Source of the DNA: a virus
Taxonomy: Duplodnaviria > Caudoviricetes
Direction: 5' to 3' (one strand)
Virus record (IMG/VR): IMGVR_UViG_3300032138_000002
Span: 32,001 to 96,000 of that record
Length of the DNA: 64,000 bases
Under the pieces are notes generated by a model that was not told where the DNA came from, searched no databases, and saw only the letters and a program-made list of their open reading frames with translations. Each line of letters begins with the position of its first letter. Within the stretch, counting starts at the first letter, position 1. Position numbers and translations under genes: made by a program. Of the stretch, positions 19,038 to 64,000 are shown in pieces.

Positions 19038-22000
19038 TTAATCATCGAAGGATGCACCACTATCTGTAATAACAAAGTCGACCGCTACAAATTCAATGGC
19101 CTGTGCCGGTTTCAAGAATACCTTCGCATACATGATATTACGATCAATCATCTCCGGTGTAGTTGTAGTGTCATCTAAGATAACTTTATAGTCTGTGAGC
19201 CCCTGGCCAGCTTGAATGCCGCTCAGAAGCGATTCTGCCTTACCTTTGAACTTGGACCAAGTAGCTTGGACGTTTTGTTCGAAAAGCATCGTGGCAGAAA
19301 TACGGGAAATCTCTCTCTTGACAAGAAGCAATAGACGACGTACATTGATACGATCCAATGCGGATGTCGTCATCTGCAATGTCTTCTGCCCAAAGATTAC
19401 AATACCTTCCGCGGGGAAAGTCGCAATTGGATTGACATTTGCTTCATAAAGATTATCACGATCCCGAGAACTCAGTCGTGATTTTGTTGCTACCACCGGG
19501 AGGCCAGCGGCGCCTTGAGTAAGTCCACCGCGAGTAAATCCTGCGGGGGCAAACCAGGCGGCGCGTTTCTTCTCACTGGAAGAAATAGTTCCAAGAGCAA
19601 CAACCGAAGGAGGTACATTGACCAAGGCATTATTAATATTGTCTCGGATTTGTACCCATGGGAAGTAAGCGCATCCATAACTGGAGTTAAGGTTTCTCTC
19701 TTTAAGAGAATTAACCGCATTCTCGACGTTTGGTCGACGAGCGGCGGCGCTTGTTGTGCCAGCGGTCGTAGGAACATAGTCGTTCTCCAGATCAATAATC
19801 GCCAATGCATCGCCGCGGTCCTCACAGGCTTCAATAAGTCCTGCGGTGAGCCCGGGTGTATTGATACCTGGCATCAGCGCAAGGTTCATCTCTACACTTT
19901 CTGGATCGCGGATGGTGTCCACGCAACGCTTAATGGTGTTGAACGGGGAGCTTGTGCGCTCGTTAGCACCGTCGACGTTCGTAAGCGTGTTACGAAGAGG
20001 GTCTAACTCGGTAATATCGAAACCATCGAAACCGCCATGGAAGACAGTTGTGAAACGATTAAAGCGATAATTAGATCCAGTCAATAGTAGTGCATAATCG
20101 TTTATAGCACTAATCGAACGCTGAGCTAACGTACTATCTGCGCGGGAGCCTGATACGTATACCGCATCTTTAACGGTGCCGTCCGGGGAGGTAGACGCTG
20201 ACAGGTCATCAAGCGTAAATACCCACGAGGAGGACTGATAGGTGGCGTTTCCTACAGAAAGGTTACTAGAGATGCGTTTAATAACGTCTGAGACGCTCGC
20301 GTCATAAGTATTGTAGGAAGTGGGTCGACCTACTTTGGCGCCGAAATACGCCTGACGAGGTGACGTGTCACCATCACTTCCAGATTCGCGCAATCCGATG
20401 GTTGGGAAAATATAAGAAGCGGATAGAGAACTAGTCGCTTGTTGGGTAGCGGGGGCCAGAGCGGCATATGGGCTAAAATCACAACCTACAAATGGCTGGG
20501 GGCCTAAGGTGCCGGTAATAACTGCTGGAAGAATAAGCTGTGACGAATCTCCCGTGCCGGCTGTTTCCCCTTTAAGGGCGTAGTAGCCCTGCGCTGGGCC
20601 AACTCCACCGGTAATGAGTGAGGTCGTCTGATAGCGAGGAGGTCCGAATACACCGAAAGGCAAGAGACGAGCATCTGTTGCTGCATCTGCGACGTCTGTG
20701 TTCATTTCAACACGAATAAACTTTGAAACGTTGGGATAGTCCCCTTCGATACGATAACGCTTGTCCACATCATCCCAGGTATAGCTATAATCACCGATAA
20801 CTCGGGCAATATAATTTTCTGAGTTTGGATTAAGTGTAAGCCCTGTAAATCTCTCGAATACAACAGGTGCCTTATCGCTATCTTTAAGGGAACGTAAAAC
20901 GACAGAAAATGTTCCGTAGTCCGTAGTGTTGGTGGAAGACGGGCGGACGTCCTCAATGGAGATCTTTAGGTGGTTTTGAAGCCATTCACCATGGTTCAAC
21001 CCGTGAAGTTTGAACAACTGCTGCATTTTTTCCGCGTTGAAAGTGGTCCGATCACCTAAGTCTTGTCCAATAAACCAGCCTGTGCGGCCATCGCCAAAAC
21101 TAGATTGGTGGTTGGCCCATTCAAGATTGTCGTCCTGTGACGCAAGACCTAAAAGAACTCCATGTGTAATTTGCCCTTGACCACTAAGATAGGTATCATC
21201 ATAAAGACCTACGTTACTTTGATTGGGCTTGTTACCGGCACTACCCGTTTGGAGCATACAATCGAATGTTTCGCCCAGGAAATAAGACTTAGCTGATCCA
21301 ACTACTTGATCATTGACCAGTGTAGGATTTGTATTAAAGACTTTACGGATATAACGTGCAGAATTTCTATTTAAATTAAAGCGCACATTTTCGGCGGTTC
21401 CCGCTGCAATTGCGGCCTGTGTGCCGATGCTCATAATAAAGCCGCCACCACTTTGAGTCGCGATCATCTGAGCCTGGGAAGCTGTTGGGTGACCACTACC
21501 GATACCGCCCTGGTTACCCGAAAGGGCGAGCGTAATAACGGCTGTGGAGGCGCCCGAAGAAGCCGTGGTATAAAAAACAGCCGCCAAAGATCCAGACTGG
21601 GTTTCGAGAGCGGAACTCGAATTAAAGAGGAAAAGTCCGTATGCGCCGCCTCCCGTAGTTGGGCTAACTGTTCCAAAGTCAACGCCGTTCGGGGCATCAG
21701 CAGATGCTCCCCAACCGGCGCGACCGGCGGTAGTGCGTTCTGCATTTTCAGCGCCAAGTGTTCTCATAATAGTGCAAGGAGAGTTGTTTTTCAGCCATGC
21801 TTGTGCTGCGTATGCCGCGTATGTGGGGGAGGTATAATTCCCTTCTCGCCACACATCGCCACCTTGCCCGCCGGCGATTGGGTTACCAAATACCTGAATA
21901 AATTCAGAAAAAGACCGTACGGTGATGGGACGCATTGCTGGTCCTCTTTCGGTGCGTCCAATAATAACTGGACCGGGGGGTGTTGGGGCTCCGGGGAGCC

Positions 22001-22064: not shown

Positions 22065-22098
22065 AGTTGCATATCTCCTTTGCAAAGTAATTCTTTAA

Positions 22099-22105
22099 TA
22101 AATAG
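22099..22105 (-). promoter_or_regulatory. late-promoter motif CTATTTA (sheath)
   Basis: Intergenic, about 35 nt upstream of the start. Confidence 0.7.
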
Positions 22106-22129
22106 TAGTACTTCACGGTAAAAGAACTT

Positions 22130-23498: not shown

Positions 23499-23502
23499 CT
23501 AC

Positions 23503-24822
23503 CTACCCCTGGAATATCGGCAGGGGCATGCGTTCTTGAACCTTCACAACCGCTTCTGACTTGACCGCGGCCTCTTGAGCCATCTTTGTATATGTCAGTT
23601 CGTCCAGAATGGCTTTGAGTTCATCACGTAAAGAAGTTTGCTCATCCTTTGCCTGACCTAATAGGGCGTCACCGTTTAAACTCAGATTGCTTCCGGGAAT
23701 TGGTATCTGTCCAAACTTACTCCGGATTTGACCCAACATCCCTTTACAGATAGAAAGGGCGAACCGGCGGATCCATTGTTTACCAATAGAATTGATTTCT
23801 TCATATTTAAGATTTTTAAATGGCAAGTTGTTCATATTATTGACGCCGTTTACGTTGTTAAGCCGATTGGCGTCTTCTTCCCATGGCTCGTTCTCATTTG
23901 AAATAACAAATTCAACCCACATTTTCTTGGGACCCACTGTCGTAGTTAAGGGGAAAATTCTCAATTTATTATTTTTCAATTCATAGGAATACTGTGAGTT
24001 GCGTGTGTATATTGCGTCTTCAAAGGCCGCGGCTTGGAGTTTATTTTGCCAGACAGGAACGATTTGAAATTGAGAATCATCAGCCCACTGGCCGTAGTTC
24101 TGTAGGTTTCCTACGGTGTTAAGCCCTCCATAGTATCCAAAAAACCTCCACATTGCTTGAGGGGTTTTATAATAAACTTTACGAATGAGCAATCGATTAT
24201 CGCCTACCTTATTATAATAAGGAAGTGTGCTATCAGAATCGGCACTAGAAGATATAATACTTTGAAGATCGTAATCTTGAACCGATGCCGTAGTATTAAA
24301 TGAGGCGGAATAAACTGTCTCATAGCCGTTTAGATTCACCTCATTAGAAGTTGCTTGTCCGTATTTTCTTTCGTAGGCAAATGTAATGTTTGGAAACTTC
24401 GCACCTACATTGGACCCCATATAGTTGTCGTCTCCGAGACTTAAGCTCGAAGAAAGGCTTCCTGATTTATATTCACCTTTGCTATCGAAACTTCCTGTCT
24501 GAGAGCCTAATAAATCTGACAACGAATTCTTAGATTGGTGAAGATTCATCAAATAAGAATATTCGAGAACTGCCTCTTCGTAGGCCGCATAAACCTGGTT
24601 TTCGGTGATCTCAATATCTAAAATCTCCCCACCCAATTTTTTATAAACATATGCAACCTGGTCTTGGGCTCCTGTAATAAAGTCCAAACTTCCAGTGTAC
24701 ATCCCGAAAACTATTCCGTTTTCGACTTGCGTGCCGCCGGTGGCTTGACCGACGAAGGTGCCGCTTGCAGGAAGCGTAATAGAGCTAGTAACGCTCGATG
24801 GGGATAAGTTGACTGTCGACAT
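23503..24822 (-). CDS. neck protein (gp13-like)
   Basis: KLGGEILDIEITE, WIRRFALSICK..LGQIRSKF..IP...LNGD. Confidence 0.85.
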   Translation of the reverse strand: MSTVNLSPSSVTSSITLPASGTFVGQATGGTQVENGIVFGMYTGSLDFITGAQDQVAYVYKKLGGEILDIEITENQVYAAYEEAVLEYSYLMNLHQSKNSLSDLLGSQTGSFDSKGEYKSGSLSSSLSLGDDNYMGSNVGAKFPNITFAYERKYGQATSNEVNLNGYETVYSASFNTTASVQDYDLQSIISSSADSDSTLPYYNKVGDNRLLIRKVYYKTPQAMWRFFGYYGGLNTVGNLQNYGQWADDSQFQIVPVWQNKLQAAAFEDAIYTRNSQYSYELKNNKLRIFPLTTTVGPKKMWVEFVISNENEPWEEDANRLNNVNGVNNMNNLPFKNLKYEEINSIGKQWIRRFALSICKGMLGQIRSKFGQIPIPGSNLSLNGDALLGQAKDEQTSLRDELKAILDELTYTKMAQEAAVKSEAVVKVQERMPLPIFQG

Positions 24823-24840
24823 ACATGTGTTCCTCTAGTG

Positions 24841-24847
24841 TAAATAG
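24841..24847 (-). promoter_or_regulatory. late-promoter motif CTATTTA (neck)
   Basis: Directly after a terminator, about 19 nt upstream of the start. Confidence 0.7.
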
Positions 24848-24854
24848 TTTTATC

Positions 24855-25547: not shown

Positions 25548-27362
25548 TTAGACAAGATCTTGAATAACAACAAGGCCGTACATATCAGGACGTACCATCT
25601 TCTTCGCGTAACGGGTCATTACACCCTTACGAGGAACAAAGTCCTCGACACCGAAGATAGTTGGGGTCACCTGAAGTGGTACATATGGAGCATAAACATA
25701 ACCGCTCTCAAGGAACGAGTTACCCTTACGTCCAACAAGGACCACATTACGGGGGAAGTACGGATCTACATGTACATCCCACTTCTTGCTAAGAGAACCA
25801 ACTCTTACAGCACCAACGGAACCGCGGTCGCCGTCACCAGTGACGTCGGCACGGAAGCCCGAAGTGAACTCAAGAATGCTAGCAACCTCTGGGGAGCAAA
25901 CAATGAAGTTTGCACCACCACGAAGTGTCTTGCGGTGGATACGTGCGGAGACGTCATTAACTGTCTCACACAGCGTTTCATACCATTCAGACACTGTACC
26001 GGTGAAGTCAGGAGCGACAGTGGTTGCTCCAATTTCTGCACCAGTCTCGCGGTTAACGAACTTGCCAGCAGCACGGGACCAGTAGAGAGTTCCACCAGTT
26101 GCGCCCTTAATGAGGTCCTCAAGGATCTCACGGTCGATCTCCAAAGCGATCTGCTCTGAGAGAATACCAGTAAGTTCAACCTCTGCGTCGAGGTTGTGAT
26201 AAGCGTTGAGGTCCTGGCCAAGCTCGGGGGTCCACTTTGCCTTCAGCTTCTTGGTCATCGCAGTAACGGATACCGAATCAACTTTAATGTCGATCTCTGG
26301 AATTTGAGCGCTATTCTCCAATCCCCAAGTATTAGTACCAACTACAGCACCAATCGCCTCGGCAGAGCCAGCAGCAGGTGTGCCAGCAAAGTTGTCGTCA
26401 ATTGGGAAACCAAGGACGAAATTGAGGCCACTAGCTGAAAGACACGACAGGAGGTTTGTGGTCGCCGCCGCGCCGTTGGACAGGACCTGAGAACCAGTAG
26501 CTTCCCAAACCATCTTAATCTTGAAGACCGCATTTCCGGCGTTAGCACCGGTCGAGCCGGTAGAAACCGTTGTCAGGCGTCGTACGAGACGCCCTGGTCC
26601 AGTACCTGCCTGACTCAGTGAGGAATTTTGGTCCACGTTGATTGCAACCATATCGCGGATATTCAACTGGGCGAGCCCAGCAGCACCGGTCAACTCAGTA
26701 ATAGCAACTTGAGAGCCAGAAAGATCTGGATCAAACTGACACAACCTGTCCAAGATATCTTGATTAGCTTGAGAGAGTGGGTAGTCTCCACCACCGCCGC
26801 CCACACCAACGGTACCGGAAGCGATGTGTCCCATTCCGCCGGCCCCGCGAGTGTCGCCCTGGAGGACGAAGGATGCGGTTGGGGATGCATAACCTTGATT
26901 AAGGTTATAGAAACTGTCACTAGCCGTATCGCCGGTGAGTGTTACACCACCAGTGATTTCCTGACCAACAACTCCACCACCATAAAGTGATTCATCGACA
27001 GACGCCCACAAACGTGGGGTAGCGCTATCGATTGTGAAATCGAGGAAGAATACGAGACCAGATGGAAGGCTCATTGGTTGAACACTAACAAGGTCATTCG
27101 CGATGAGGCTACCGAAAACACGGCGGACGAGAGGGAATGCTACTGCAGCAAATCCTTCTACATCACCCTGTGCCATGGTAGACGCTTCGCGGAGAAGCTC
27201 TTTAGCTTGGTTCTCAAGCAAGCGAGCCATACAGTTTTTGTGACTATCGTTACCGACACCTTCAAGAAGACCGGTCTTTTCCCATTTTGAAATGAGAGCA
27301 GCACCTTCCTTTTGTAAGTCGCGGTTAACGATGCCTTCAGTAAGTTTTTCTAAAACAGACAT
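25548..27362 (-). CDS. major capsid protein (gp23-like)
   Basis: LLENQ, PLVRR, VQPMSLPSGLVF, KLKAKWTPELGQDL.A.H, EIDREI, YAPYVPL, MTRYA. Confidence 0.97.
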   Translation of the reverse strand: MSVLEKLTEGIVNRDLQKEGAALISKWEKTGLLEGVGNDSHKNCMARLLENQAKELLREASTMAQGDVEGFAAVAFPLVRRVFGSLIANDLVSVQPMSLPSGLVFFLDFTIDSATPRLWASVDESLYGGGVVGQEITGGVTLTGDTASDSFYNLNQGYASPTASFVLQGDTRGAGGMGHIASGTVGVGGGGGDYPLSQANQDILDRLCQFDPDLSGSQVAITELTGAAGLAQLNIRDMVAINVDQNSSLSQAGTGPGRLVRRLTTVSTGSTGANAGNAVFKIKMVWEATGSQVLSNGAAATTNLLSCLSASGLNFVLGFPIDDNFAGTPAAGSAEAIGAVVGTNTWGLENSAQIPEIDIKVDSVSVTAMTKKLKAKWTPELGQDLNAYHNLDAEVELTGILSEQIALEIDREILEDLIKGATGGTLYWSRAAGKFVNRETGAEIGATTVAPDFTGTVSEWYETLCETVNDVSARIHRKTLRGGANFIVCSPEVASILEFTSGFRADVTGDGDRGSVGAVRVGSLSKKWDVHVDPYFPRNVVLVGRKGNSFLESGYVYAPYVPLQVTPTIFGVEDFVPRKGVMTRYAKKMVRPDMYGLVVIQDLV

Positions 27363-40433: not shown

Positions 40434-41249
40434 TTATTTTTTTAATTTATTAATTTCTCGCTGCAATAAATCTATTTGTTTTTGTTGATCTTTTATAGCT
40501 TCTATCAATATCGGCGTTAAGCGAGAATAATCAATTCCCAATAGCTCGCTCTGAGAGTCTACAATTTCTGGAAGAATTATCTGCATTTCCTGGGCGATAA
40601 GTCCCACCTCGGGAGACCCGCCCGTTTTTAAATTATAAGTTACACCCTGCATCGAGCGTACCTTTTCAATCGCACCATCAATGGGTTTAATATTAGTTTT
40701 AATTCGTTCATCTGAATAAGTAACATATGCCGAAGCCTTGATCTGGCCCGTCTGCGCGTTGTTCGGAAGAATAAGCCCATAGCTAGAATTTGGAGCTATC
40801 CCAATACCCACTGAACCTGCGAAATAACCTCCTTGAGAACCCGTCAATTGTGCCGTGATGGTCGTAGTGTCGGCTGCCGCGTTCCCCAAGGTCACGCTTC
40901 CAGAGACACCCAGAGTGCCGCCGACGCCAAGAGACCCCGTTGTGTCGATATAACCATTTCCGCTAGCTATCCAGCCGACATCATCCTCAAGGCCCGCTGC
41001 AGCTATAGTTATGGTGCCGGCACCATCGTCTGTTATCGTTATGTTCGAGCCGGTCGCAAGACTTTTAAATTGTAATTCTGTGCCAGACTTTTGATAAAAA
41101 ACGCCGTCGGCTCCAGGATCCCCTACGTTTGCGGCAGTGTTGACTTCACCACCACTAGACGCGTCCGAATACTGGATGATCTTTTTACGTAATTTCCCTT
41201 CGGTATAATCGGCAATGTTGCCGACACCGGGACGAAAAGATTTAGCCAT
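40434..41249 (-). CDS. short fibre protein with peptidase S74 chaperone
   Basis: YSDERIKTNI...GLIAQEM...DYSRLTPILIEAIKD. Confidence 0.85.
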   Translation of the reverse strand: MAKSFRPGVGNIADYTEGKLRKKIIQYSDASSGGEVNTAANVGDPGADGVFYQKSGTELQFKSLATGSNITITDDGAGTITIAAAGLEDDVGWIASGNGYIDTTGSLGVGGTLGVSGSVTLGNAAADTTTITAQLTGSQGGYFAGSVGIGIAPNSSYGLILPNNAQTGQIKASAYVTYSDERIKTNIKPIDGAIEKVRSMQGVTYNLKTGGSPEVGLIAQEMQIILPEIVDSQSELLGIDYSRLTPILIEAIKDQQKQIDLLQREINKLKK

Positions 41250-47619: not shown

Positions 47620-48957
47620 TCAGATATCGATCTTTAATTTAAATGTAAAATCTCGAGTCGCCGTTTTTTTAATTGGGTTGGCCAATTTCGCAATTCCAAT
47701 CAAATTTTTATTTCTATCGTAAACACCCACTTTAGAAATGTAAGTGGTTTTTGCGAAGCTCCCGGTTCCATTGGGAAAAGAACTGCTCACGATATTCTTA
47801 ATTTCAAAGGTGGGGTCTTGGGTATACCCGGCTGAGCCACTCATAACGCCGTGCATAGAGCCCGAAAAGGAAGCGTTGGTATCTCCGGCTGCTGAAGCGG
47901 TGTTTGCGACCGTAAAGGTGGGGTTATTAGAGAAATTCAACTGCCCGCGGGGTGCATGTGCGAACATAGTCACAACGGGAGTATGGTTGGTGCCCTCGAA
48001 TTCCATGCTATAACTAGAAGAGGGTATATTAAGAGAACCTGAACCATCGTTGGGAATTCCGGTGCCCCAATAAGTCCACGTGGGGTTCGTGGCGGCGGTT
48101 GTAGCATTATAAGTTTCAGTATGGGGACTTAGAGCCCATGAACCAGTCAATAATACGATGCCTTCATTGTAAAGTACGACGCCTGCGACGCTCCCACTCT
48201 CGAAACCGGCGTAGGTTCCGCTTACCTCAATTAAATTACCGTTTTTATAGATATCTTTACATTGTGCTGCGAGTGTCCCACTCACATAAAATTTAATATC
48301 CATTGACCCCTTTTTAACTCCGGATCCACAAAAAATAGAAGGGATGTTAATAAAGTTTAGTTCTTGTGTTCCCTTATCCCACTGTGCAGTTCCATCGGAA
48401 ACATTTGCAGAAGCAGTATAAGCATATTGATCACTTAAATACGTATAATAATTTAATGTATTTTTCAAGGCATCAATGTGAGAACTGCTGACAGTCAGGA
48501 TTTGGGTCTTGTTTAGTTCGGGTAAAAAGACTTCTTTATTAGCCAAAATGAAGCGAGACTGATTCGTCCCAAAATATTGTCTAGCAATACTTGCTGAGAG
48601 CGGGTAACTGGAGGTCATCCTTGTGCCGTAGTCAGTTGTGTTATAAGACCCCGTAGTTATAGTGGAAAAGCCCATGCCTGAGGACCCCTTTACTATGAAG
48701 GGGCGGATTAAGGAAATATTGCCGGTGCCGGTTTCCCAATTATAAGTATCTAAATCTTCTGCTCTATCAACATTGAGTTCATACAAACTCACACTACCAA
48801 CAGGGTTTAACGTTACGTTAGTGGGGGTGATACTTCCGCTTTCATAAGGGGTGTTATTAAAAAAGACACTGCCACTATAAACCGTAAAGGAATTTCGTGG
48901 ATAAGTCTTAATTCTGTTTACTAAGACGTCATCTCTTCCAAACTTATAGTACGACAT
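47620..48957 (-). CDS. virion structural protein (baseplate/collar)
   Basis: FSNNPT...YISKVGVYD..NLIGIAKLANPIKK...FKLKIDI; paralogous C-terminus with the next gene. Confidence 0.7.
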   Translation of the reverse strand: MSYYKFGRDDVLVNRIKTYPRNSFTVYSGSVFFNNTPYESGSITPTNVTLNPVGSVSLYELNVDRAEDLDTYNWETGTGNISLIRPFIVKGSSGMGFSTITTGSYNTTDYGTRMTSSYPLSASIARQYFGTNQSRFILANKEVFLPELNKTQILTVSSSHIDALKNTLNYYTYLSDQYAYTASANVSDGTAQWDKGTQELNFINIPSIFCGSGVKKGSMDIKFYVSGTLAAQCKDIYKNGNLIEVSGTYAGFESGSVAGVVLYNEGIVLLTGSWALSPHTETYNATTAATNPTWTYWGTGIPNDGSGSLNIPSSSYSMEFEGTNHTPVVTMFAHAPRGQLNFSNNPTFTVANTASAAGDTNASFSGSMHGVMSGSAGYTQDPTFEIKNIVSSSFPNGTGSFAKTTYISKVGVYDRNKNLIGIAKLANPIKKTATRDFTFKLKIDI

Positions 48958-48972: not shown

Positions 48973-49998
48973 CTAATAATCCAACCTTACTCTTAACGTA
49001 AGCTCGGTTTCTGGGGATTTCTTTAATGGTTCAGATATTTTGGCTGTCGCTAATAGTTCGTTATCAGCAGAATAGAGGCCTACAGCCGTAATATAAGACT
49101 GTGGCTGATCTAGTGTCGATTCCTTGACACGGATTTTACTGGCTGAAAGATATGTGGGGTTTGAACTATAGTTAAATTCATTATGATTTGCTCGGCAAAA
49201 ATATACCGTCGAGTTTAACTCTGTAGTGTTGTTCCAATCATTGTTGTTCCAAATGTGTCGGAAAGCATCACAAGAGGCGCTAATAGCAGAGCCTGTCAAC
49301 ACGGCAACCAATCGCTCGGCGTCGGAGTTTGCGATACATTGAGCAAAAGAGGACGTGTGAAGAACCGCTATACCAGCTTGATAGAACAGAAGTCCGACGT
49401 TGCCCGAGAGTGAGCTAGACAGAATAGAATATTCACCAGCCGGAGAATCAGTATAAAAATCAGTAATGTTATTAGTAGTGGGGCAAGTGATTGTATCATT
49501 AGTTCCACTCATTGCTGATGGCCATTGGCGAGCGATATCCTTGTCTAGACTAAGTGTGAAGCTTCCTTTCTTAACTTCGTCTTTGCAGAGAAGTCTCGCA
49601 AAACTAACAAAGAAAACTTCTTTAAGTTTGCCACCACCAGGAATTTGAAATTCTTTAATGGCACCGGTCACGTCGTGGCCCATAAGTACTTGAGCCATTT
49701 GATTATAAATGTTAATCTTCTTGTCTTGCTGAGTTACATTAGAAGATGCACTCAAAGCCGAATTAGCTGAATATCCAAACGAGACATCAAATATATGATT
49801 TGCCGAAGAACTCAAATAAGGATAATCGTAGGTCGATTGGAACATGCCGTGAGAATAATTCTTTATGTTGGTCGTCGCAGTAGCGAGTTCACTATAAGTT
49901 CCGGAAACGATTGACCCCGTGAGAGGAATTGCTTCGTGCAACAAAGTCTTTGTTGCCGTAACGTCGTCGCTAGTTAATGGTTTGAAAGTAGTTGCCAT
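48973..49998 (-). CDS. virion structural protein (baseplate/collar)
   Basis: YSSNPT...YITAVGLY...LLATAKISEPLKK...LRVRLDY. Confidence 0.7.
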   Translation of the reverse strand: MATTFKPLTSDDVTATKTLLHEAIPLTGSIVSGTYSELATATTNIKNYSHGMFQSTYDYPYLSSSANHIFDVSFGYSANSALSASSNVTQQDKKINIYNQMAQVLMGHDVTGAIKEFQIPGGGKLKEVFFVSFARLLCKDEVKKGSFTLSLDKDIARQWPSAMSGTNDTITCPTTNNITDFYTDSPAGEYSILSSSLSGNVGLLFYQAGIAVLHTSSFAQCIANSDAERLVAVLTGSAISASCDAFRHIWNNNDWNNTTELNSTVYFCRANHNEFNYSSNPTYLSASKIRVKESTLDQPQSYITAVGLYSADNELLATAKISEPLKKSPETELTLRVRLDY

Positions 49999-51066: not shown

Positions 51067-54000
51067 CTAACATGTCTCCGTTATTTGTGATTGTTGCGTA
51101 GTCTCAACATTTTTCAAAGTGCACGACAAGTTGATGTCTAATTTTTTACAACTGTTTTTTGACGTCAATCTTATCTTAAATTTCTTGCTGTTGTCAAAGA
51201 TACTTTCATCGGCCACCCCTAGTTTAATTTGTCCAGATTTTCCGCCAATAGTAATCTCCCCATTTTCGTTGGGTGTCACGCCAGAATCTTCCAAGTTCAA
51301 CATTACTTGTTGCAGAGCCGGCTTTATTAATAATAATTTTCTTGCAGGGATAGATGTCTTCGGTTGGAGTTTTTTAAAGTCATAAAGTTTCATATCGAGG
51401 TAAGTGATTCCATCCGTCGAAACTAATTGTACCTCATGAATTGCAGTAGGATTGGAGATATTTCCGTGGATATCGGCCATCCTAAAAATATAATAATATT
51501 TTGTGTTAGGTTTAAGAGTATCACGAAATCCATCAGATGTTATGTCTTCTAATAATATTTTTTTATAAAATTCTGCATTTCTGAAATCTCCATAACTCTC
51601 GGGAGGCACTTCGGTCCTGAATATTTCAAAAGCTGATGGGGGATCATCGGACACATATTGGATTTTGTCTGTGGCTTTAAGAGTAAGTTCATCGAAAATT
51701 GTTTTTTGATTTTCGTAATATTTTTGAATTACTGGACCGTCGCTCTCTAAAATAGCAATCGGCGTTTGATAAACAGGGCCGCCCACTGTAGAACGGAAAT
51801 TGATGAGCAATTTATTGTTGACACTCTTATAGGGGACCAATTCCACCTCGGGTGCCATCGGTGGTTTATTCCTAACAAGCATCTCCGTCGTATAATAAGG
51901 AAGTTCAAATATTTTCATGCATGGGTAAGAATCAGCAATAATTTTAAGGGAGGTGGTGATATCCCAATTTATGCCCCCTTCAGATGCGTTAGGCTGATCG
52001 GACTGGGCTACGGGGGACATGTTGTCGGTAGAAAAGCCAAAGGCGGATCCGCCTAACTGAGTTAATATTTTGTCGACTGCTTGTTCCATTTGAGCCGCGG
52101 TCCCACAGGTATACGTGTCACCAGTAAGACCATTTAATTCGAAACCTCTATAGTAATACTTGGTACCAAAAACCATCCGCTGAGCATATATATTATACGT
52201 ATACATTTTAGATTGCTTCACGCGAGTATCTATATAATGTAAAAACTCCATTTCAGAATCGACCGCGCAATAAAAGTTACCTTCGACTTCGCCCGTTTTT
52301 TTATCAATCTTCTCAATTCTATAACCTATGGTTTCGGAAGTCGCTTTCGAGGGTTTTTTTAAAATTTCCCCTAAAGTGCGCGTAGATGTCACAAATTTTT
52401 CAAAGACATCACTATAACGTGAGTTAGTATAAAGTTTCTGGATTTCCGATTTGGAAAACGTATCGCTTGCATTGTCTCCGAGATCCCCAGTTGCAACAAT
52501 AGGCAGGTTACGCGGATATTTACTTTGGTAAGCCGGGTTCGGACTCTCTCTTACCCCATAATAGTCTTCACCAAACAAAGACCCGTAAAGTAAAAATTTC
52601 ATGAAATCTAAACTATCATAGTCCAGAGCGTTTCCCGTTGCGGCCGCATATCCCGGAGAGCCGGGATTTAATATAATCAAGCTGTATTTATCCCAATCAT
52701 TCGAAATGAGGCCTTCTTCCTCTTCCGGAAAGCCTTCTAAATACGACGGATTAAAATTATGAGTAGGGACTTTGTACCCGGCAGCACGCTGGAGATATTT
52801 ATTGTAAACTTTTAACAACGCTAGTTGCAAGGAGCCGCCCATTTTGTTAGGGCCCCGTCCGAGAAAATCTGCAAAGGGGACCGGCGTGTGGTCGCCTGTG
52901 GCATTGTCCCCCATTCCATTAATGACCTTATATGGGGACGCCTTAGGATCTTCCAACTTTATAACAAGCGCGTTGTACATGGGGAAAAGGCTCTTCTTCT
53001 GTTTGGCGGTGCTTAAAATGTCTTTTATTCCCGAAGCGGGAGTTAACAACAAATCGCGAGTATTATATAAAGTAGCATTTAATGCCGCAGGGCCGAAACC
53101 TGGTTCATCAACATCCGTTAGATATTTGGAACTTAAAATACAAGCCCACCGTTCAAAATATTGCCCGAAATCTCTTTCTCTTGTTTCCCCGATAGCATTC
53201 CGATTAATTTTTTGTACGGACCCAGGAACGTTGGGCTTGCCAGTAAGAATGTCCGTAAACACTCCCTCGACATTTCCATTAAGGGTTAAGAAGTTGTGGT
53301 AGACGTCAGTCAACCATTCCCGACTCGGGTTTTGCTCATCAAAGTCAAAAACCCCATTTTGCATATTGAGTTGTCCAGTGGATGGGGATGGGGAGTATTC
53401 CTCTGCGATGGCGATATTGATGTCTGGTAATACCCTTTCTGGAACGATTGGTGAGTTGATGGCCTCCTCATAACTCTTAATAAATCCATTATATTGTGCC
53501 GTCTCTTCTATGGGAAGGGCCGATGCGCCAAATCCGTCTTTGGAAGAATTGGGCGTAGGGAAATTGGTAGTAAAGTCATAAAAAGGCTTATTAAGTTGTG
53601 GCAAGAGATTAAAATAAAGTTTCCGGAGAGGTTCCTTAAGTTGTTCTTTGAGTTCCTCTATATTGGGATTATCCGCAGATGTTGTGCGTTGGTTAATCAC
53701 ATAAATCTCTTCTCGGACTGCCAGTGAGTTTAAATTAAAAGAACCTGTTCCTACAGTATTCAGGTTGTCCTCGTAGATTTGCAAAGTTTTGTTAAACACT
53801 CCAAACTGTGCTAGCTCTGGACCCCAAGCGTGTTGGAGCCACTCAGCCTCCGCCTGTGCATAAACCTCATCATACTGTTCTTGAGTATTTTCCCACGTTC
53901 CTGCATCTTGCAGACTTACTATCTTTTGGAGGACTATTTTTTGTATATGACCGCCTGATAGGCCATTTTCGACGCCCGAACCGTAGACATCTGTAACAAT

Positions 54001-55419
54001 TGGGCTAAGCTTGGTGACGCCGGTTGGGAGCGGCAAGGACTGGTTAACACTATTGATACGTGTGTTTTTAGTAGTAAAATTACTATTAGGATTGTTTTGA
54101 AGCAGTTGTTCGCAATTGGCCATGCGCGTTTTTAAATTATAGAGGAGATCATCCCATGATTTATTTTTTTCGTATATTTTTTCCCCCGTTGACCAAGGCG
54201 TGTCTAATGGAGAGGGTAAGGTTGCAGGTCCCCCACCAGCTTTATATGCGGCCCATTCTTGATCAAAAGCTTCTGTTTTGACGATGGTTTCATTAGCGTG
54301 TGGTACCTCAGTATAATCTCCGGGTTGAACCGTAACGAATTCCATGTCGGGGTGCCAGTCTTTAGGAAATAAAAATCGTGTAGGGCACATAACAATACTA
54401 TCATCAGTAATTGCGCCGGGTGGGAGCGGGGTGCCTTGCAAATTGGGACCATTTAAAACCGCTATTTGGTACCAATCATATTCGTTGGGAGAAAAAACCA
54501 ACTTGTCTCCGGTGGTCAACACATAAGATGTTTTGTTTTCGAGCGATTGAAATTCAGGCGGTCTCGAAGTTGCGCGATATTGAAAGTCTGCGGCTAGATC
54601 CTCATCAATATCATTAACATAGTCGGTGTAGGCTATAGCATCATTTGAAGTCACACTCGACCAAAAAGCTCCAGTGAACATTCGAACGGGGTCAGATGGC
54701 AAATAAGCGCCGCCGGCGGCGCCCTTTACTTGCATAAGAAACTCTAGAAAATTTACGCCAGTCGGAGTTTCTTGTTTAAACCACTTTAAGAGATCTAGTC
54801 GACTATAAGTCCCATTCCAAAATACATCCTTACCAGGAGTGGCGGGAGCTTTTTCTGCCTCCGCGGTCACGTACTGAATATACATGTCTAGCATATCTTT
54901 ATCTAGGACTAGGGCCTTGCTGTTAGGTGCATCATAGGCGTTCTGAGTTAACACTGTTGTTTTATCTGCGGGAATGGGGTTCCCGGGAGCCCCTATTCCA
55001 CCTTCGCCGACAACCTTAGCGGAACCGCCGGGGCCACTGAGGTCTAAACCTGCCGGATTAGCTACATTTTTGCCCGGGCCGGGTGTTGTTTCTGGTACTT
55101 TAGGTACTTTGTTGGCTTCATTAAAAGCATCCTCTATAGCTTTTGCTGCTGCCGCGGCTGCAGCGGCAGCTTGCATTCCCTCTTCTTGTGCTTTGACTTT
55201 TTGGCTTTCGGCTTCCGAAACCGCTGTCGCTGTTGTAGTTCCGTCCGTTGTATTGGTTTTAGCCGGGGCGGCCGCACCAGAACCCAGGCCTGCCGCTTGA
55301 TTTCCTTTGGTGTCGCCGTTAAGGTCAAGGTTACCTCGTTTATTGCCACCGCGCGGCGCCGGTGTTTTAGGAAGCGGCTGCGGTGGAAATGGTGGAAATG
55401 TTGGTGGGAGATTAGCCAT
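51067..55419 (-). CDS. large putative virion protein (1450 aa)
   Basis: Pro/Ala-rich N-terminus; Fn3-like C-terminal patterns (GYRIEK...YTY, FEIFR...YYYIFR). Confidence 0.65.
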   Translation of the reverse strand: MANLPPTFPPFPPQPLPKTPAPRGGNKRGNLDLNGDTKGNQAAGLGSGAAAPAKTNTTDGTTTATAVSEAESQKVKAQEEGMQAAAAAAAAAKAIEDAFNEANKVPKVPETTPGPGKNVANPAGLDLSGPGGSAKVVGEGGIGAPGNPIPADKTTVLTQNAYDAPNSKALVLDKDMLDMYIQYVTAEAEKAPATPGKDVFWNGTYSRLDLLKWFKQETPTGVNFLEFLMQVKGAAGGAYLPSDPVRMFTGAFWSSVTSNDAIAYTDYVNDIDEDLAADFQYRATSRPPEFQSLENKTSYVLTTGDKLVFSPNEYDWYQIAVLNGPNLQGTPLPPGAITDDSIVMCPTRFLFPKDWHPDMEFVTVQPGDYTEVPHANETIVKTEAFDQEWAAYKAGGGPATLPSPLDTPWSTGEKIYEKNKSWDDLLYNLKTRMANCEQLLQNNPNSNFTTKNTRINSVNQSLPLPTGVTKLSPIVTDVYGSGVENGLSGGHIQKIVLQKIVSLQDAGTWENTQEQYDEVYAQAEAEWLQHAWGPELAQFGVFNKTLQIYEDNLNTVGTGSFNLNSLAVREEIYVINQRTTSADNPNIEELKEQLKEPLRKLYFNLLPQLNKPFYDFTTNFPTPNSSKDGFGASALPIEETAQYNGFIKSYEEAINSPIVPERVLPDINIAIAEEYSPSPSTGQLNMQNGVFDFDEQNPSREWLTDVYHNFLTLNGNVEGVFTDILTGKPNVPGSVQKINRNAIGETRERDFGQYFERWACILSSKYLTDVDEPGFGPAALNATLYNTRDLLLTPASGIKDILSTAKQKKSLFPMYNALVIKLEDPKASPYKVINGMGDNATGDHTPVPFADFLGRGPNKMGGSLQLALLKVYNKYLQRAAGYKVPTHNFNPSYLEGFPEEEEGLISNDWDKYSLIILNPGSPGYAAATGNALDYDSLDFMKFLLYGSLFGEDYYGVRESPNPAYQSKYPRNLPIVATGDLGDNASDTFSKSEIQKLYTNSRYSDVFEKFVTSTRTLGEILKKPSKATSETIGYRIEKIDKKTGEVEGNFYCAVDSEMEFLHYIDTRVKQSKMYTYNIYAQRMVFGTKYYYRGFELNGLTGDTYTCGTAAQMEQAVDKILTQLGGSAFGFSTDNMSPVAQSDQPNASEGGINWDITTSLKIIADSYPCMKIFELPYYTTEMLVRNKPPMAPEVELVPYKSVNNKLLINFRSTVGGPVYQTPIAILESDGPVIQKYYENQKTIFDELTLKATDKIQYVSDDPPSAFEIFRTEVPPESYGDFRNAEFYKKILLEDITSDGFRDTLKPNTKYYYIFRMADIHGNISNPTAIHEVQLVSTDGITYLDMKLYDFKKLQPKTSIPARKLLLIKPALQQVMLNLEDSGVTPNENGEITIGGKSGQIKLGVADESIFDNSKKFKIRLTSKNSCKKLDINLSCTLKNVETTQQSQITETC

Positions 55420-59020: not shown

Positions 59021-59033
59021 AGTCTTTCAATAA

Positions 59034-62000
59034 TTACTCGGAATTATCCTTTTTTGTGAACTCTATTTCGGTATCAACCTTGGCTAGTTCCACCAATGAG
59101 AAGAAGTCATAAGGCCAGTTATAACTGTAATTTGGAGTTTTCTTTTCTCCGCCAACTTCGAATTGGAAAGCAAAACGGTCATCGTCGGTAGAATCTGCTG
59201 TCGCTGCATAGTAGTTAGAAGCGGCTCGGCGTTTAACCTTAAATATCATCCACTGAGTTTCCGCGGGGGGCGCTTTGCCTCCGAAGAACTCATTAGAAGT
59301 CATCTCGTGGGATATCGAAACTGATTGTTTTTCTGCTGTCTTGGCGATTTTGGGCATTAGATTTTGCCAAATATCAGAGAGATCCTCACGGTCCAAATCA
59401 TGTGTAAATTCAAACATATACATTGCAAATGGGGAAATTTTAGTATCTGTCAAGAAATCTAAATGTGGGGGGATCACATATTTTTCCATCGTTTCGACCA
59501 TATGAACAATGGAATCGCCCGGGATACGATTAGTTGTTTCTAATCTTTCAATTTCCCGTTTATTAGCAATACCTCGAACATACTTGATTTGTGATTTCAA
59601 AAGAGGAAAGAATTTTCTTTTTCCTTTCTTTTGCACAAAAGGAATAGCAACAACACATTCTCCAATCTCTTTTTTGCTCGCGAGTTCCCCAACTCGTTTT
59701 TTTGTACCTTCAAATCCGCACACGTCTAGAAGAGACCCCGTATTTGTACTTTCTAGCGTGTTGACCTTATCCGGAAAACTTTCTTTAATGCCTAAGAAAA
59801 TGCCTGCGGATCCGCTTGGAACATAACCGTATTGTCCCCAAATAGTGGTGGCTTGGCTTCCTGACGAGTATGGAGTTTCTCCGGTTTCTGCTATATATTG
59901 TGATAGGTTATTGTTGGCCGATTGAGTGAAATTTAGAGTTGGGCATTCGAATTTTGGACTGATTGTCCACACATCGTATGAAGAATCCGACGCATCTTCG
60001 GCTGTGGATGCCACAAACTCATCGCCGGAGGTTTCGCCGGCCTCGTATGTAACTTTTTTGACACTCGTTTTGCCAAATAAATTTACTGAAGATGTCAACC
60101 TCATTTGTGACAGACCCGCGGTGTGGCCGTTGTCGGTAGCTCGTCGCAACCACTCCGTATCGTCATTAGCACTAGATGTAAATATAGTTTCTATTTTGCA
60201 CCCTGCTAATATCTCGTCTAAAGTAAAAAATTTAGTTTCATTTTCTAGGAGAGCCTCATGTTGGTGTGGGGTAAAGGCCACGCGTGCTACCGCAGAACCA
60301 TAAAAATAAGGGGGAGTAAAGGGGGCAAAAGCAGGGTCGGTGACATTTATAGATTCTGCATAATATCCTGGAGGTTTAAGTGGGTGAGACACTTCGCTGG
60401 AACTCACAAACTGGCATGGGGGGCCAAAAAATGTCCCACGATAGTTTCTGCTGCCCGTTACATAAGTGCGCATATCATCCGAACCAGTAGTTTCCAAAAC
60501 AACAATATCGGTTAGCCCCTCGCTCATTACAAAATCCGAACTCTTACGTAGCTCTACATCCATATAATAAGTGGATCCCGATTGCATACTTTTAAAAGTT
60601 CTTTCAGGTTTAGAGGTGAGGTTTACAAACCTTGAATTATTTAAGAAAAATTGTGGAATTTCGGCTAAAAAGTTATTCATCGCCAGGGGATAGTTAAGCT
60701 TATTTTCTCCGTTCCAGTCAAAAAAGGAGTTATCTGTGGTTGGCCCGTATAGCGATGCAGTGGGTCTGTGTGGATATTGCATGTATATCGCGCTGGAGCC
60801 ATCTGATGCCGAGGGTGGTAGATAACGACTTGGGTCTACCAAAGCTTCGAATGGAAGTCGATAATTGAATAAACCGCCCGCTCCAGACAAATATCCTAGT
60901 CCGGTGGAGGCGTTGGCGTCATCAACATTCGGGCCTAAAGTTCCAGAACCCAGTGATCCGGTTACGGTAGGCCAATCTACTGCAATACCACTCTTTATTG
61001 AGTTGTACAGGATGCCCGGAGCGAAAAATGGTTGCATTAAAGATATAAGACGTTCTGCGTCGTAAGATCCCGTTTTAGTCAATGATGATCCCGATATGTT
61101 CTCCCCAAACGACCGAGAGAGTTCACTGCCCAATTGTACGCTGCGGAGAACCGGATAAAAACCATTATAGGGCAATAATTTTTTAACCCCTTCGCACGTC
61201 AAAGTAATTTTATTAACTTTGTTATTTTCTTCTTTGAATTCTCCAAAATGTTTCATAAAGTCTGTATTACTATAAATTTGGAAAAAGTTTTCATTATAAC
61301 TAGATGTCGGAGTGTCTGCGCTGGCTGATACCGCGGTTCCGTTAAGCGTTAGAAATCGATTATTAAAAGAAAAACCATTATCAATATAGTGATCCATATG
61401 TTCTGATATGCGGAATTCTGGTACCACACTATAGTTTTTACCGAATGTCCGGATGTCCGATGCGTAGTCCTCATAGGTATCGTGCCATGGCGCATTGTCA
61501 GACATCACATCAGCATTCCAAAACCCGCCGCTGGGGATAGTGGAGGAAACACTAGGGTTGGTGATACCTTGTTTGAGAAAAAGCCCGGGGTATTTTATAG
61601 TGTTGAACGCTGGGTCACCACGGAGCGCGCCGGCGCTGGAAGAGTATAATATTGCCCAATTATTAAAGTAAATATACGATTGAGAGGCCGTCAGGGGACC
61701 TTGCCAGCCGCCGTCCGCATATTGCCCCGAAGCTCCATAAGTATAGGGAAAGCTACTTGTGGCTGTAGCTCTCAACCATTGTCGCCACATAGAGTTATAT
61801 AATTCACCATTTGGATATTGCCGTAAAATATACGGGAAACTACCGGTTCCGGTGAACCATTGGTTTGAATCCAAAGGCCATGCAGATAGGCCGAGCTTCC
61901 ACATAGCCATTCTGTCATTCTTGGGTACATCCCCCGAGAGAAAATAGTTAAGCGAGGCTGAACCCACATACTGAGACAGTGTGGTGCCCATAGAGTTTTT

Positions 62001-64000
62001 AGCCATATTATTATTACGTACACGATAGGAAGGCGCGTTTGGAAAGAGCGGTGCGAGAAGGGGGAGATCGGTGACCCCACGAGACCGCCAAAAAGTATTC
62101 TGCGTTCCCAGAGTTCTATTAAAAGCTGCCGAACCACTTTCCTCTACGAATTCTAGACGGCCTCGAACTTTGGCTAAGTATGTGTTTTCTTCACGAGGGT
62201 AAACTGTTTCTCTATAAGTAAAGCTATTAAGAGTAACGTCTGTATTGTTTGCCACGCGATCTACAATGACATCATGTACTTGTTCCTGATTAGTTGGAAC
62301 TCCTAAGCGTAAATCCATTTCCGCATTAGTCATGAAGTCCAAATTGTTGCCGTAAGTATCTCGCAACTCTACGATATTATTCATATTATCTTGAAGTTGG
62401 TGTGTCATTGGCTTAAACTTAGACGAAGCAGGAGGTACAGTGAACTTTTTGATGTCTCTAGCATACTTTAAAGTATTTTCTTTTAACTCTCCGGCATAAT
62501 AACTTCCCTGCGGCCGAGGGCCTGATGGGAGTGGGCGAGTAACAAGTATATCAATAGTGTTATTCTTTCTTTGCTCTCGGACAATTGGATTATCATGACC
62601 GCGAATCTGTTTCCACGTAGGCCACCCATAAGGACCTTGGCGATGGTGAATAAGACCGTTAAGGAGTTTGGATCCCGAAATAGCTGTATACGAAGGATTA
62701 GAAGAGAGGGAATAAAGAAGTCCGCCTCTATAATTAAAGTCCGTTGACGAAGCAATGTTTTGAGAGGGGTAACCCCTCGTATTTGTACTCGAAGTAATGG
62801 GCTCATAGATGTTGGAGTTAAGTCCTACGAAATCATTGGCTAAAAAGCCTGTTAAGCCGGAGTTAACATCTGGCCCATACACACGCCCGGGAGTAAAAAG
62901 GGCGCTTCCGAGAGAACTTGCGGTGAGGAATTTAATGGGACTAGACCATCCTGCAATTCCGGCTGCACCAGAAACCGTTCCGTCATAATATCGACTATTA
63001 GATGTGTACCCTACTAATGGGTGGGTACCTACGTTTGCCCCACTGATTGAAGAAGTGATCCAGGCATATTGTAATTCGCTTCGGGGGATGGACACATTCA
63101 TAAATAAATTATCATACACAGATGCCGTCACATAACGATTAGGATTAAATTCACTCAGCACATCCATGGCAGCGTTGCCAAATTTCATGATACGGTGTGT
63201 GTTACGGTTGACTTGCTGCCAAGAAGCTGTAGTATCGTAGTTGTCAGCTTGGATTGAGCCAAATTCGCTATCGATACCAAATTTGCCACAGTGTCGTGCT
63301 GTCAACACATTCAGGCCGTCATCGCGAGTATGAATTTCCGTATGAACATCGATGGCCATTTTATTATTGTCGTTGGCGCCGTCGGATCCAGAACTAGCAA
63401 TTACAGTCTGATTCTTATAAGGTAACGCATTATAAACTGAATATTCTTCGGACGGTGTGTTCATATACCCTCGCGAACTAATTTCAAAGCCGCCGGGTGA
63501 GGCACAGCGATTAACGATAATCGACTCTGTTTTAGGTCGCGAGGGTAATTCGAAGTTAAGGTTTCCTGTCAAGAACGCAACTTCCGGCGTTTGAGAGGCT
63601 AAGTCTTCGGAATTATGAACAAACCATCGGTTATTTGCCGTACGGCTATTGGAGGATACCACGTCGGTGTTGCGAGAGAAGTTTCCAATTACAGTGGTTT
63701 TTTGTTGGGCAGACCCCGTAGCTGTCTTAAGATTTTTAATAACAACCGGGCGTTTCGTGCCAAGATTAATATCAGATCTTGCAAGATCCAGATTAAGTGT
63801 TCCGGATTTTGTTTTACGGGGCTCATAAATACTGACATCTGCGCCAATGCCGCCGGCTAACGTTGCCGGGGAAGCGCCTGTGCCGCCGGCAACAAAAGTT
63901 CCGACAACATCTGTGAACGTAATATCATTTCCCGCGGCGCCCGGAGCGGTCGCGGTCACCTTGAATTTATTCGTAGTGCTGCCTGCTTCGGCAGTGATCC
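59034..64000 (-). CDS. very large S/G/T-rich virion protein, 5' end beyond the window
   Basis: Frame is open to the window edge (ITAEAGSTTNKFKVTATAPG...); more than 1650 aa. Confidence 0.75.
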   Translation of the reverse strand, partial: ITAEAGSTTNKFKVTATAPGAAGNDITFTDVVGTFVAGGTGASPATLAGGIGADVSIYEPRKTKSGTLNLDLARSDINLGTKRPVVIKNLKTATGSAQQKTTVIGNFSRNTDVVSSNSRTANNRWFVHNSEDLASQTPEVAFLTGNLNFELPSRPKTESIIVNRCASPGGFEISSRGYMNTPSEEYSVYNALPYKNQTVIASSGSDGANDNNKMAIDVHTEIHTRDDGLNVLTARHCGKFGIDSEFGSIQADNYDTTASWQQVNRNTHRIMKFGNAAMDVLSEFNPNRYVTASVYDNLFMNVSIPRSELQYAWITSSISGANVGTHPLVGYTSNSRYYDGTVSGAAGIAGWSSPIKFLTASSLGSALFTPGRVYGPDVNSGLTGFLANDFVGLNSNIYEPITSSTNTRGYPSQNIASSTDFNYRGGLLYSLSSNPSYTAISGSKLLNGLIHHRQGPYGWPTWKQIRGHDNPIVREQRKNNTIDILVTRPLPSGPRPQGSYYAGELKENTLKYARDIKKFTVPPASSKFKPMTHQLQDNMNNIVELRDTYGNNLDFMTNAEMDLRLGVPTNQEQVHDVIVDRVANNTDVTLNSFTYRETVYPREENTYLAKVRGRLEFVEESGSAAFNRTLGTQNTFWRSRGVTDLPLLAPLFPNAPSYRVRNNNMAKNSMGTTLSQYVGSASLNYFLSGDVPKNDRMAMWKLGLSAWPLDSNQWFTGTGSFPYILRQYPNGELYNSMWRQWLRATATSSFPYTYGASGQYADGGWQGPLTASQSYIYFNNWAILYSSSAGALRGDPAFNTIKYPGLFLKQGITNPSVSSTIPSGGFWNADVMSDNAPWHDTYEDYASDIRTFGKNYSVVPEFRISEHMDHYIDNGFSFNNRFLTLNGTAVSASADTPTSSYNENFFQIYSNTDFMKHFGEFKEENNKVNKITLTCEGVKKLLPYNGFYPVLRSVQLGSELSRSFGENISGSSLTKTGSYDAERLISLMQPFFAPGILYNSIKSGIAVDWPTVTGSLGSGTLGPNVDDANASTGLGYLSGAGGLFNYRLPFEALVDPSRYLPPSASDGSSAIYMQYPHRPTASLYGPTTDNSFFDWNGENKLNYPLAMNNFLAEIPQFFLNNSRFVNLTSKPERTFKSMQSGSTYYMDVELRKSSDFVMSEGLTDIVVLETTGSDDMRTYVTGSRNYRGTFFGPPCQFVSSSEVSHPLKPPGYYAESINVTDPAFAPFTPPYFYGSAVARVAFTPHQHEALLENETKFFTLDEILAGCKIETIFTSSANDDTEWLRRATDNGHTAGLSQMRLTSSVNLFGKTSVKKVTYEAGETSGDEFVASTAEDASDSSYDVWTISPKFECPTLNFTQSANNNLSQYIAETGETPYSSGSQATTIWGQYGYVPSGSAGIFLGIKESFPDKVNTLESTNTGSLLDVCGFEGTKKRVGELASKKEIGECVVAIPFVQKKGKRKFFPLLKSQIKYVRGIANKREIERLETTNRIPGDSIVHMVETMEKYVIPPHLDFLTDTKISPFAMYMFEFTHDLDREDLSDIWQNLMPKIAKTAEKQSVSISHEMTSNEFFGGKAPPAETQWMIFKVKRRAASNYYAATADSTDDDRFAFQFEVGGEKKTPNYSYNWPYDFFSLVELAKVDTEIEFTKKDNSE

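Follow-up and report, generated by a model that had tools for sequence, protein, structure and literature searches.

A directional [ST]-G/A-S tripeptide excess in virion-module proteins of an aquatic T4-like phage and its possible reading as an O-glycosylation sequon

General O-glycosylation in Bacteroidota acts on exported proteins and follows the sequon D-(S/T)-(A/I/L/V/M/T). Aah, which acts on AIDA-I, recognises a strand-loop-strand geometry with no sequence consensus (PMC3835316), and GtfA/GtfB, as outlined in PMC6973325, O-glycosylate Ser/Thr of serine-rich repeat adhesins within an S-x-S-type sequence before export. Among viruses, chloroviruses and giant viruses are described as carrying their own glycosylation machinery (PMC9614988, PMC5408694), and the summary of Freeman et al. 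2023 given in PMC12619734 reports that phage-encoded glycosyltransferases (GTs) glycosylate the mycobacteriophage virion, the glycans being attached at the C-terminal ends of the capsid and tail-tube subunits. In the literature found, no such system with a defined sequon was described for a tailed phage, and a literature search on phage tail-fiber serine O-glycosylation by mass spectrometry gave no match. Here we report on the tripeptide [ST]-[GAS]-[ST] in the virion genes of a 64,000-nucleotide stretch (the window), corresponding to bases 32,001-96,000 of the 159,483-bp IMG/VR genome of an uncultured phage (IMGVR_UViG_3300032138_000002; approximately 90% complete), for which an earlier note had proposed this tripeptide as a candidate signal for virion modification. 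Genes are named by window coordinate (Table 1).

The locus resembles the mycobacteriophage case in that a tailed phage encodes soluble GTs and an O-glycan is proposed on structural proteins assembled in the cytoplasm. It differs in that the motifs are scattered over proteins of the baseplate, tail and neck and absent from the presumed tail tube, the case for the capsid is weak and the host belongs to another phylum; moreover, mycobacteriophage virion glycosylation is proven, whereas the present system is a proposal from sequence. C-terminal acceptor sites in capsid or tube were not seen, the motifs of the major capsid protein (MCP) lying in its central insertion and none in its last 150 residues. 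By analogy, the closest mechanistic counterpart would be the autotransporter heptosyltransferases Aah/TibC acting on AIDA-I/TibA, in which Ser/Thr residues are O-glycosylated in the cytoplasm at many sites of a beta-rich protein, although in our case the tripeptide is clear and the putative substrates are virion proteins rather than secreted adhesins; the phage enzymes match only GT2, GT4 and GT4-conflict Pfam models, no heptosyltransferase model having been searched by name. Unlike the long serine-rich repeats that serve as GtfA/GtfB acceptors, the tripeptides here are isolated and stand in folded domains. The Bacteroidota system shares a three-residue O-glycosylation sequon spread over many proteins, and some relatives of the phage infect Bacteroidota; the sequon here would however be [ST]-G/A-S, virion proteins are assembled in the cytoplasm, the GTs lack membrane segments and the genome encodes no membrane transferase. 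Chloroviruses and giant viruses likewise combine a virus-borne sugar-nucleotide pathway with GTs that decorate their own particle, but they are viruses of eukaryotes with different capsid proteins.

A directional tripeptide excess in virion-module proteins

The [ST]-G/A-S excess is real, directional, specific and confined to virion-module proteins. Expectations were taken from 2,000 whole-protein and 40-aa-block shuffles, and paired figures are given in that order. The hand counts made earlier for 47620 (20) and 48973 (12) were reproduced exactly, the sheath has 17 motifs, and the excess over S/T/G composition held under per-protein shuffling, with 152 motifs in all genes from 19038 on against 79/87 expected (z 8.7/7.3). 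Expected counts were 6.1/6.6 for 47620 (z 6.0/5.8) and 4.3/4.7 for 48973 (z 4.0/3.7), while the in-window part of giant 59034 carries 39 motifs against about 14 expected (z 7.0/7.1) and the full 3,221-aa protein 68 against 27.7 (z 7.9). The sheath showed a moderate excess (z 2.4-2.9), with only 10 of its 17 motifs outside the conserved sheath domain; all 9 motifs of the gp13-like protein fall within its N-terminal 195 residues (z 2.7-4.4); 4 of the 5 motifs of fibre 40434 have the form [ST]GS (z 1.6-2.0); and fibre 37951, with 15 mainly A- or S-centred motifs (z 2.0-2.2), is a weak case. Taken singly, the sheath, the gp13-like protein, the MCP, the fibres and 55422 are each weak (p 0.015-0.11). 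The 9 motifs of the MCP do gather in the central insertion, as had been noticed (7 against 2.7 expected, p 0.009; cores 1 against 1.3).

The low counts pointed out for the portal, the terminase TerL and the presumed tail tube (2, 0 and 0) stand, but they equal expectation (0.5-3) and do not amount to depletion. The claim that only outward-facing virion proteins are enriched was overstated, in that 51067 (3 motifs against 5.7 expected), 50011, 58022 and the 2,576-aa giant belong to the same virion-gene block and are flat. The motif usually has a hydrophobic residue before and after it, a tendency that is weak at positions -2, -1 and +1.

Between [ST] flanks, G, A and S centres were over-represented 3.2-, 2.5- and 1.7-fold respectively, T was depleted (0.4-fold), and D and other centres outside G, A and S were not enriched; the rest of the proteome gave approximately 1.0 for [ST]-flanked centres. 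In a composition-free permutation test, in which [ST]GS was compared with the same residues in four other orders, the top three proteins contained 16 TGS against 0 GTS, 1 TSG, 1 STG and 4 GST, and 18 SGS against 5 GSS and 6 SSG, while T-x-T was not enriched. The core motif is a directional [ST]-G-S. By this test the clear carriers are 47620 (9 [ST]GS against 4 in the four permutation classes), the 3,221-aa giant (23 against 24 summed over the four classes, p 8e-6) and a 545-aa protein encoded just past the window. The result was suggestive for the sheath (5 against 2, p 0.005), fibre 40434 (p 0.017), the gp13-like protein and 48973, whereas the MCP (3 against 4), fibre 37951 (2 against 9) and 55422 did not pass. 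In sharp contrast to the 3,221-aa giant, the 2,576-aa second giant has no [ST]GS against 10 permuted tripeptides.

An artefact of statistics or composition, in which S/T/G-rich loops or low-complexity stretches swell the counts, is very improbable. The enriched proteins do contain more S, T and G than the rest, and a single protein of Microcystis phage Mel-JY01, with 65% S+T+G, distorts genome totals. However, the excess persists when blocks of either 30 or 40 aa are shuffled, recurs among orthologues from 80 contigs, and does not extend to T-centred tripeptides or permuted orders of the same residues, a control that effectively refutes the artefact. The codons within the motifs are also diverse, which places the signal at the protein level and rules out a DNA-level repeat or codon artefact. 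The motif flanks carry little information, which argues that no hidden shared domain underlies them.

Two observations on composition stand apart. Within the motifs of enriched genes in window 19038-64000, Thr is encoded by ACG in 30% of cases (14% elsewhere) and Gly by GGA in 40% (25% elsewhere), a local ACG-GGA codon-context bias and the only shifts in codon use seen there. The Mel-JY01 protein mentioned above (PP395634.1, 635-3052; 805 aa, 65% Ser+Thr+Gly) has 123 broad motifs, and its 508-aa neighbour has 26 against 10 expected; low-complexity proteins of this kind swamp genome-level motif statistics and must be excluded.

Distribution among relatives and candidate writer enzymes

The closest MCPs in GenBank were those of LR756508 (an uncultured phage, 52% identity), Flavobacterium phage immuto (51%), Mel-JY01 (48%) and Rhodothermus phage RM378 (43%). 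Ten genomes were compared by the genome-level ratio of [ST]GS to its permutations, which was 2.37 in the phage under study, 1.9-2.7 in immuto, 2.87 in RM378 and 2.41 in Mel-JY01 without its two low-complexity proteins. The ratio was 0.56 in T4, where none of 34 proteins (including gp34, gp37, gp12, gp10, Hoc and baseplate proteins) showed an excess, 0.94 in LR756511 (41-kb head region), 1.0 in Variovorax phage V45v66, 1.16 over the whole 484 kb of LR756508, 1.25 in the cyanophage Syn19 and 1.44, with no significant excess, in Tetrasphaera phage TJE1. The broad motif under block shuffles gave a more graded picture, with 1.2-1.3-fold in Syn19, the Variovorax phage and the sampled LR756508 region and 1.44-fold in the studied phage; a few proteins of those three reach z of about 3-3.5 (3.3-3.5 in the Variovorax phage). 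We take [ST]-G/A-S to be a short motif on which selection acts in some of the tail, baseplate and neck proteins of a large aquatic clade of T4-like phages.

The earlier note had placed the writer enzymes outside the window, and candidates were indeed found there: two GT4 proteins, one GT2 and a sugar-nucleotide operon. GT4-423 matches PF00534 (39.7 bits) together with PF13692 and PF20706 ('GT4-conflict'), and GT4-417 matches PF20706 (24.1 bits) and PF00534 (21.3 bits), both just below cut-off. The EX7E motif (EGFGxxxxE block) is present in both, and both are catalytically intact; a GtfB-like role for one of them as a degenerate partner was dropped since both keep EX7E. The operon encodes a UDP-GlcNAc 2-epimerase, an RmlB/GDP-mannose-dehydratase-like enzyme, methyltransferases, and transaldolase-like, kinase-like (APH) and sulfotransferase-like proteins. 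It also holds a nucleotidyltransferase domain fused to an intact DHBP synthase (RibB) domain (genome 124375-125817; L005:12176-13618), which together with the transaldolase-, APH-kinase- and sulfotransferase-like neighbours points to an unusual activated sugar or polyol. No transmembrane segment was found in any GT or sugar-operon protein, and the genome, approximately 90% complete, encodes no flippase-, polymerase- or priming-transferase-like (large multi-transmembrane) protein.

The GT/sugar cluster (136 to 113 kb) stands immediately upstream of the baseplate/giant block (112 to 79 kb) and reads in the same direction, and the GT4 genes also adjoin PD-(D/E)XK nuclease and PhoH genes. The GT trio is kept in 5 of 5 near-complete relatives, while the 536-aa GT2 had no homologue in a tblastn search against GenBank phages. 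Homologues of both GT4s are adjacent in immuto and Mel-JY01, and in RM378 the GT4-423 homologue is clear while the gene after it is a divergent GT4-417-like one (profile E 1e-7). LR756508 and TJE1 have the GT4-423 type only, and neither type was found in Syn19, the Variovorax phage or T4 (34 structural proteins only); LR756511, whose region was not searched for GT4s, was counted among the genomes without the pair.

On this basis, the excess goes together with the GT4 pair, all four genomes with the GT4 pair showing the excess and none of the six others (Fisher p 0.005, uncorrected for phylogeny). LR756508, although the nearest GenBank relative by MCP, has a single GT4-423-type gene and no excess over 484 kb, and the excess tracks the GT4 pair better than it tracks capsid phylogeny. 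TJE1 and the LR756511 head region may be regarded as natural experiments; neither shows an excess and neither is decisive alone. In TJE1 (NC_019930.1, 5388-10731) a nucleotidyltransferase, a nucleotide-sugar epimerase, a methyltransferase and a GT4 (24% identical to GT4-423) form a mini sugar cluster immediately upstream of the terminase genes, as in actinobacteriophage virion-glycosylation cassettes.

We infer that the GTs act on the enriched proteins and that the motif is what they recognise. The motif would then be the acceptor at which virion proteins, folded or still folding, receive O-glycans in the cytoplasm, written by the soluble GT4 pair of the phage together with the GT2 and supplied with activated sugars by its sugar-nucleotide operon. 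By analogy with Aah/TibC, recognition may depend on a strand-loop-strand or element-boundary geometry that presents a hydroxyl residue at the loop. A glycosylation sequon is the best single explanation of the data, and we hold it tentatively, at a little below even confidence.

Conservation, structure and competing explanations

The 47620 family is widespread in metagenomes, where its homologues number over 2,700 and many are marine; a tblastn search against GenBank phages returned none. The carriers had no Pfam or PHROG match, and for the 47620 model a Foldseek search against the PDB gave nothing at E <= 0.001, and VIA-align wide gave a best Z of 4.5 (a weak Ig-like sandwich only). The ESM Atlas matched only viral hypothetical clusters. 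In a 64-sequence alignment, approximately 10 of the 20 sites of 47620 are motifs in at least 67% of 63 homologues; at these conserved sites the residues vary within their class (S or T first, G, A or S in the middle and mainly S last), and every homologue is itself enriched (median 14 against 4.1). G227 and T271 of 47620 are invariant, as are TGS27, SGT32 and SSS63 of 48973 in 44 orthologues, the latter family showing the same within-class behaviour.

In 80 IMG/VR relatives, orthologues of 47620 and 48973 were enriched 3.05- and 2.58-fold, while the neighbours 50011 (1.1-fold), 51067 (0.7-fold; 0.72-fold in 69 relatives), the primase (1.0-fold) and SbcCD (0.4-fold) were flat. When the ten best-conserved sites of the 47620 family were masked, the alignable remainder was still 2.3-fold enriched. 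Orthologues of the sheath and the gp13-like protein in relatives are also enriched, mostly at other positions: the sheath sites are not shared with the Mel-JY01, immuto, RM378 or T4 sheaths, and the enriched Mel-JY01 gp13-like orthologue carries its motifs mainly elsewhere. Density that is kept while positions differ is as expected for selection on the motif itself.

Strings shared with 47620 mark 48973 as its distant paralogue, and the two are thus not independent. Both end in a C-terminal module of approximately 40 aa (window 47620-47745 and 48973-49098; ending ...TFKLKLDI and ...LRVRLDY) that is met again in immuto, Mel-JY01, RM378 and LR756508, in 2-5 proteins per genome, and is probably a shared baseplate-attachment or oligomerisation module of a multi-paralogue family. 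This 40-aa C-terminus and the C-terminal domain of the two fibres were the only BLAST similarities among the virion proteins. A duplicated domain or paralogy as sole cause of the excess was rejected on the ground that proteins unrelated by BLAST are enriched in one genome.

The AF2 model of 47620 is beta-rich (pLDDT 72), and in it SGS28 and SGT226 are predicted to occupy two-residue hairpin loops, which would match the geometry recognised by Aah (PMC3835316). The model of 48973 is poor (pLDDT 61), with the invariant N-terminal motifs unresolved and the confident sites placed at a strand end and at helix junctions.

Several observations weigh against the sequon, and many of them suit a purely structural explanation, in which [ST]-G-[ST] serves to form hairpins, strand caps or helix junctions and has nothing attached, Gly taking a turn conformation and the Ser/Thr hydroxyls capping the backbone; such an element would be used by a few clade-specific beta-rich virion families, and its link to the GTs would reflect shared ancestry. 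About half of the sites of the 47620 and 48973 families, compared over more than 60 homologues, are positionally conserved, some of them invariant, and in both models sites are predicted at strand ends, hairpin loops and helix-helix junctions, where G, S and T are structurally favoured. Of the confident 47620 sites, 65% are no more than 2 residues away from where a strand ends, compared with 44% of random S/T/G/A, a marginal difference (p 0.06). The variable and insertion runs of the 47620 family contain 46 motifs against 47 expected (ratio 0.98); such loops are probably the most exposed, and their lack of excess speaks against selection for a coat on exposed surface in general. Flat proteins include several large ones from the same gene block, and the C-terminal-module family has members without enrichment in RM378 and LR756508 and one such in Mel-JY01. 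The two leading proteins in the window are paralogues of each other, and phages without the GT pair show the mild overall excess noted above (1.2-1.3-fold), with a few Variovorax-phage proteins at z of about 3.3-3.5. The four positive genomes, moreover, belong to one broad clade, so that co-occurrence with the GT4 pair may rest on one or two evolutionary events, and in TJE1 a GT4-423 homologue and mini sugar cluster coexist with no significant excess.

A structural capping or turn motif without modification is a strong rival, even if we rate it as rather unlikely. Against it, T4 proteins of comparable beta-rich architecture show no excess, nor does LR756508 genome-wide despite being the closest capsid relative; proteins of one genome that are unrelated by BLAST share the excess, with flanks too poor in information for a hidden shared domain; the sheath and the gp13-like protein keep the density and not the positions; and homologues with the C-terminal module can lack the excess.

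The motif may alternatively be functional with a partner other than the GT pair, serving another modification (phosphorylation, acylation) or docking a decoration or assembly protein, while the GTs modify DNA or a host envelope glycan. A further point against the sequon belongs here: in all four lineages the GT4s stand beside genes of DNA metabolism (PD-(D/E)XK nuclease, DNA polymerase, ribonucleotide reductase (RNR), GuaB), which, with the 'GT4-conflict' match of GT4-423, would fit glycosylation of DNA. Hypermodification of DNA by virus GTs is well documented (bioRxiv 10.1101/2023.12.21.572611, PMC13326640), PMC13326640 making no mention of the clade under study, and the sugar operon does include kinase-like and sulfotransferase-like genes. 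Nevertheless, no hydroxymethylase or TET-type enzyme was found: PF00303 (thymidylate-synthase/dCMP-hydroxymethylase) had no match although the controls worked, in a genome approximately 90% complete, and PF12851 (TET/JBP) had none here or in any control genome, making that search uninformative, and other routes to DNA modification exist. In the data examined, the motif is not accompanied by any candidate protein kinase or acyltransferase, and the co-occurrence with the GT4 pair would have to be a coincidence. We consider this explanation improbable.

The sequon reading does not carry with it the coat over head, neck, sheath and baseplate that had been envisaged. The excess is limited to a few families (the 47620/48973 paralogues, the giant and the 545-aa protein), and neither the variable loops of the 47620 family nor several large proteins of the virion block take part in it. 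What may be suggested, with slightly more reserve than the sequon itself, is that a very large aquatic T4-like clade coats defined hairpin and cap sites on baseplate, tail and neck proteins with a phage-made O-glycan at a true sequon by means of a soluble GT4 pair, which would be the first sequon-defined tailed-phage system outside the actinobacteriophages.

Genomic setting and biological meaning

Nearly all genes of the genome lie on the minus strand, and the T4-like module in the window was recognised by PHROG matches (Table 1), which also covered the two fibre proteins, the SbcCD fusion and the primase. The 3,221-aa giant lies three genes downstream of the second giant. Between the fibre genes and the baseplate genes stand a primase and a fusion of SbcD-like (N-terminal) and SbcC-like (C-terminal) nuclease parts in one 1,052-aa open reading frame (ORF; window 42993-46151). 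Upstream of the sheath region, a 793-aa protein (window 14623-17004) has unusually high contents of Ala (15%) and Gly (11%).

Table 1. Features referred to in the text (window coordinates unless stated otherwise)
Feature	Coordinates	Strand	Remarks
Sheath	19038..22085	(-)	1,015 aa; PHROG match; large non-conserved N-terminal and insertion regions
gp13-like head-tail adaptor	23503..24822	(-)	439 aa; PHROG match
gp23-like MCP	25548..27362	(-)	604 aa; PHROG match
gp20-like portal	32007		PHROG match
TerL	33975		PHROG match
Presumed tail tube	ORF 18443		183 aa
Long tail-fibre or baseplate-wedge-like protein	37951..40287	(-)	778 aa
Short tail-fibre protein	40434..41249	(-)	271 aa
Virion-module protein	47620..48957	(-)	445 aa; without Pfam or PHROG family
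Distant paralogue of 47620	48973..49998	(-)	341 aa
Protein of the same virion-gene block	51067..55419	(-)	1,450 aa; internal negative control, not enriched
Giant virion protein, C-terminal part	59034..64000	(-)	whole protein 3,221 aa; gene extends to window coordinate 68699
Second giant	genome 104568-112298 (window coordinates 72568-80298, past window end)		2,576 aa; same operon as the 3,221-aa giant
GT2, GT4-417, GT4-423	genome 131.3-135.5 kb		536, 417 and 423 aa

The heptamer CTATTTA occurs 23 times on the coding (minus) strand of the whole genome against 7 on the other, and 15 of the 23 copies precede a gene start by no more than 120 nt, the majority by no more than 45 nt, mainly before virion genes (for example at window 22099, 24841, 28501, 37941 and 51030), a placing consistent with a late promoter. 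There is no copy in genome 84-150 kb, a span that holds giant baseplate genes as well, and its absence there says nothing on the timing of the GTs.

The signal itself is robust under either reading, and immuto, RM378 and Mel-JY01 are cultured, which makes it directly testable. If the motif is structural, its interest is modest, as a rule of construction peculiar to the beta-rich tail proteins of one clade. If it is a sequon, virion glycosylation would reach from a few actinobacteriophages to an abundant marine and freshwater myovirus lineage, which would matter for adsorption, particle stability, grazing and the way hosts recognise the phage; it would supply a sequence rule for predicting glycosites from metagenomes, and would give a function to those sugar-nucleotide and GT genes that aquatic phages carry and that usually go under the name of auxiliary metabolic genes.

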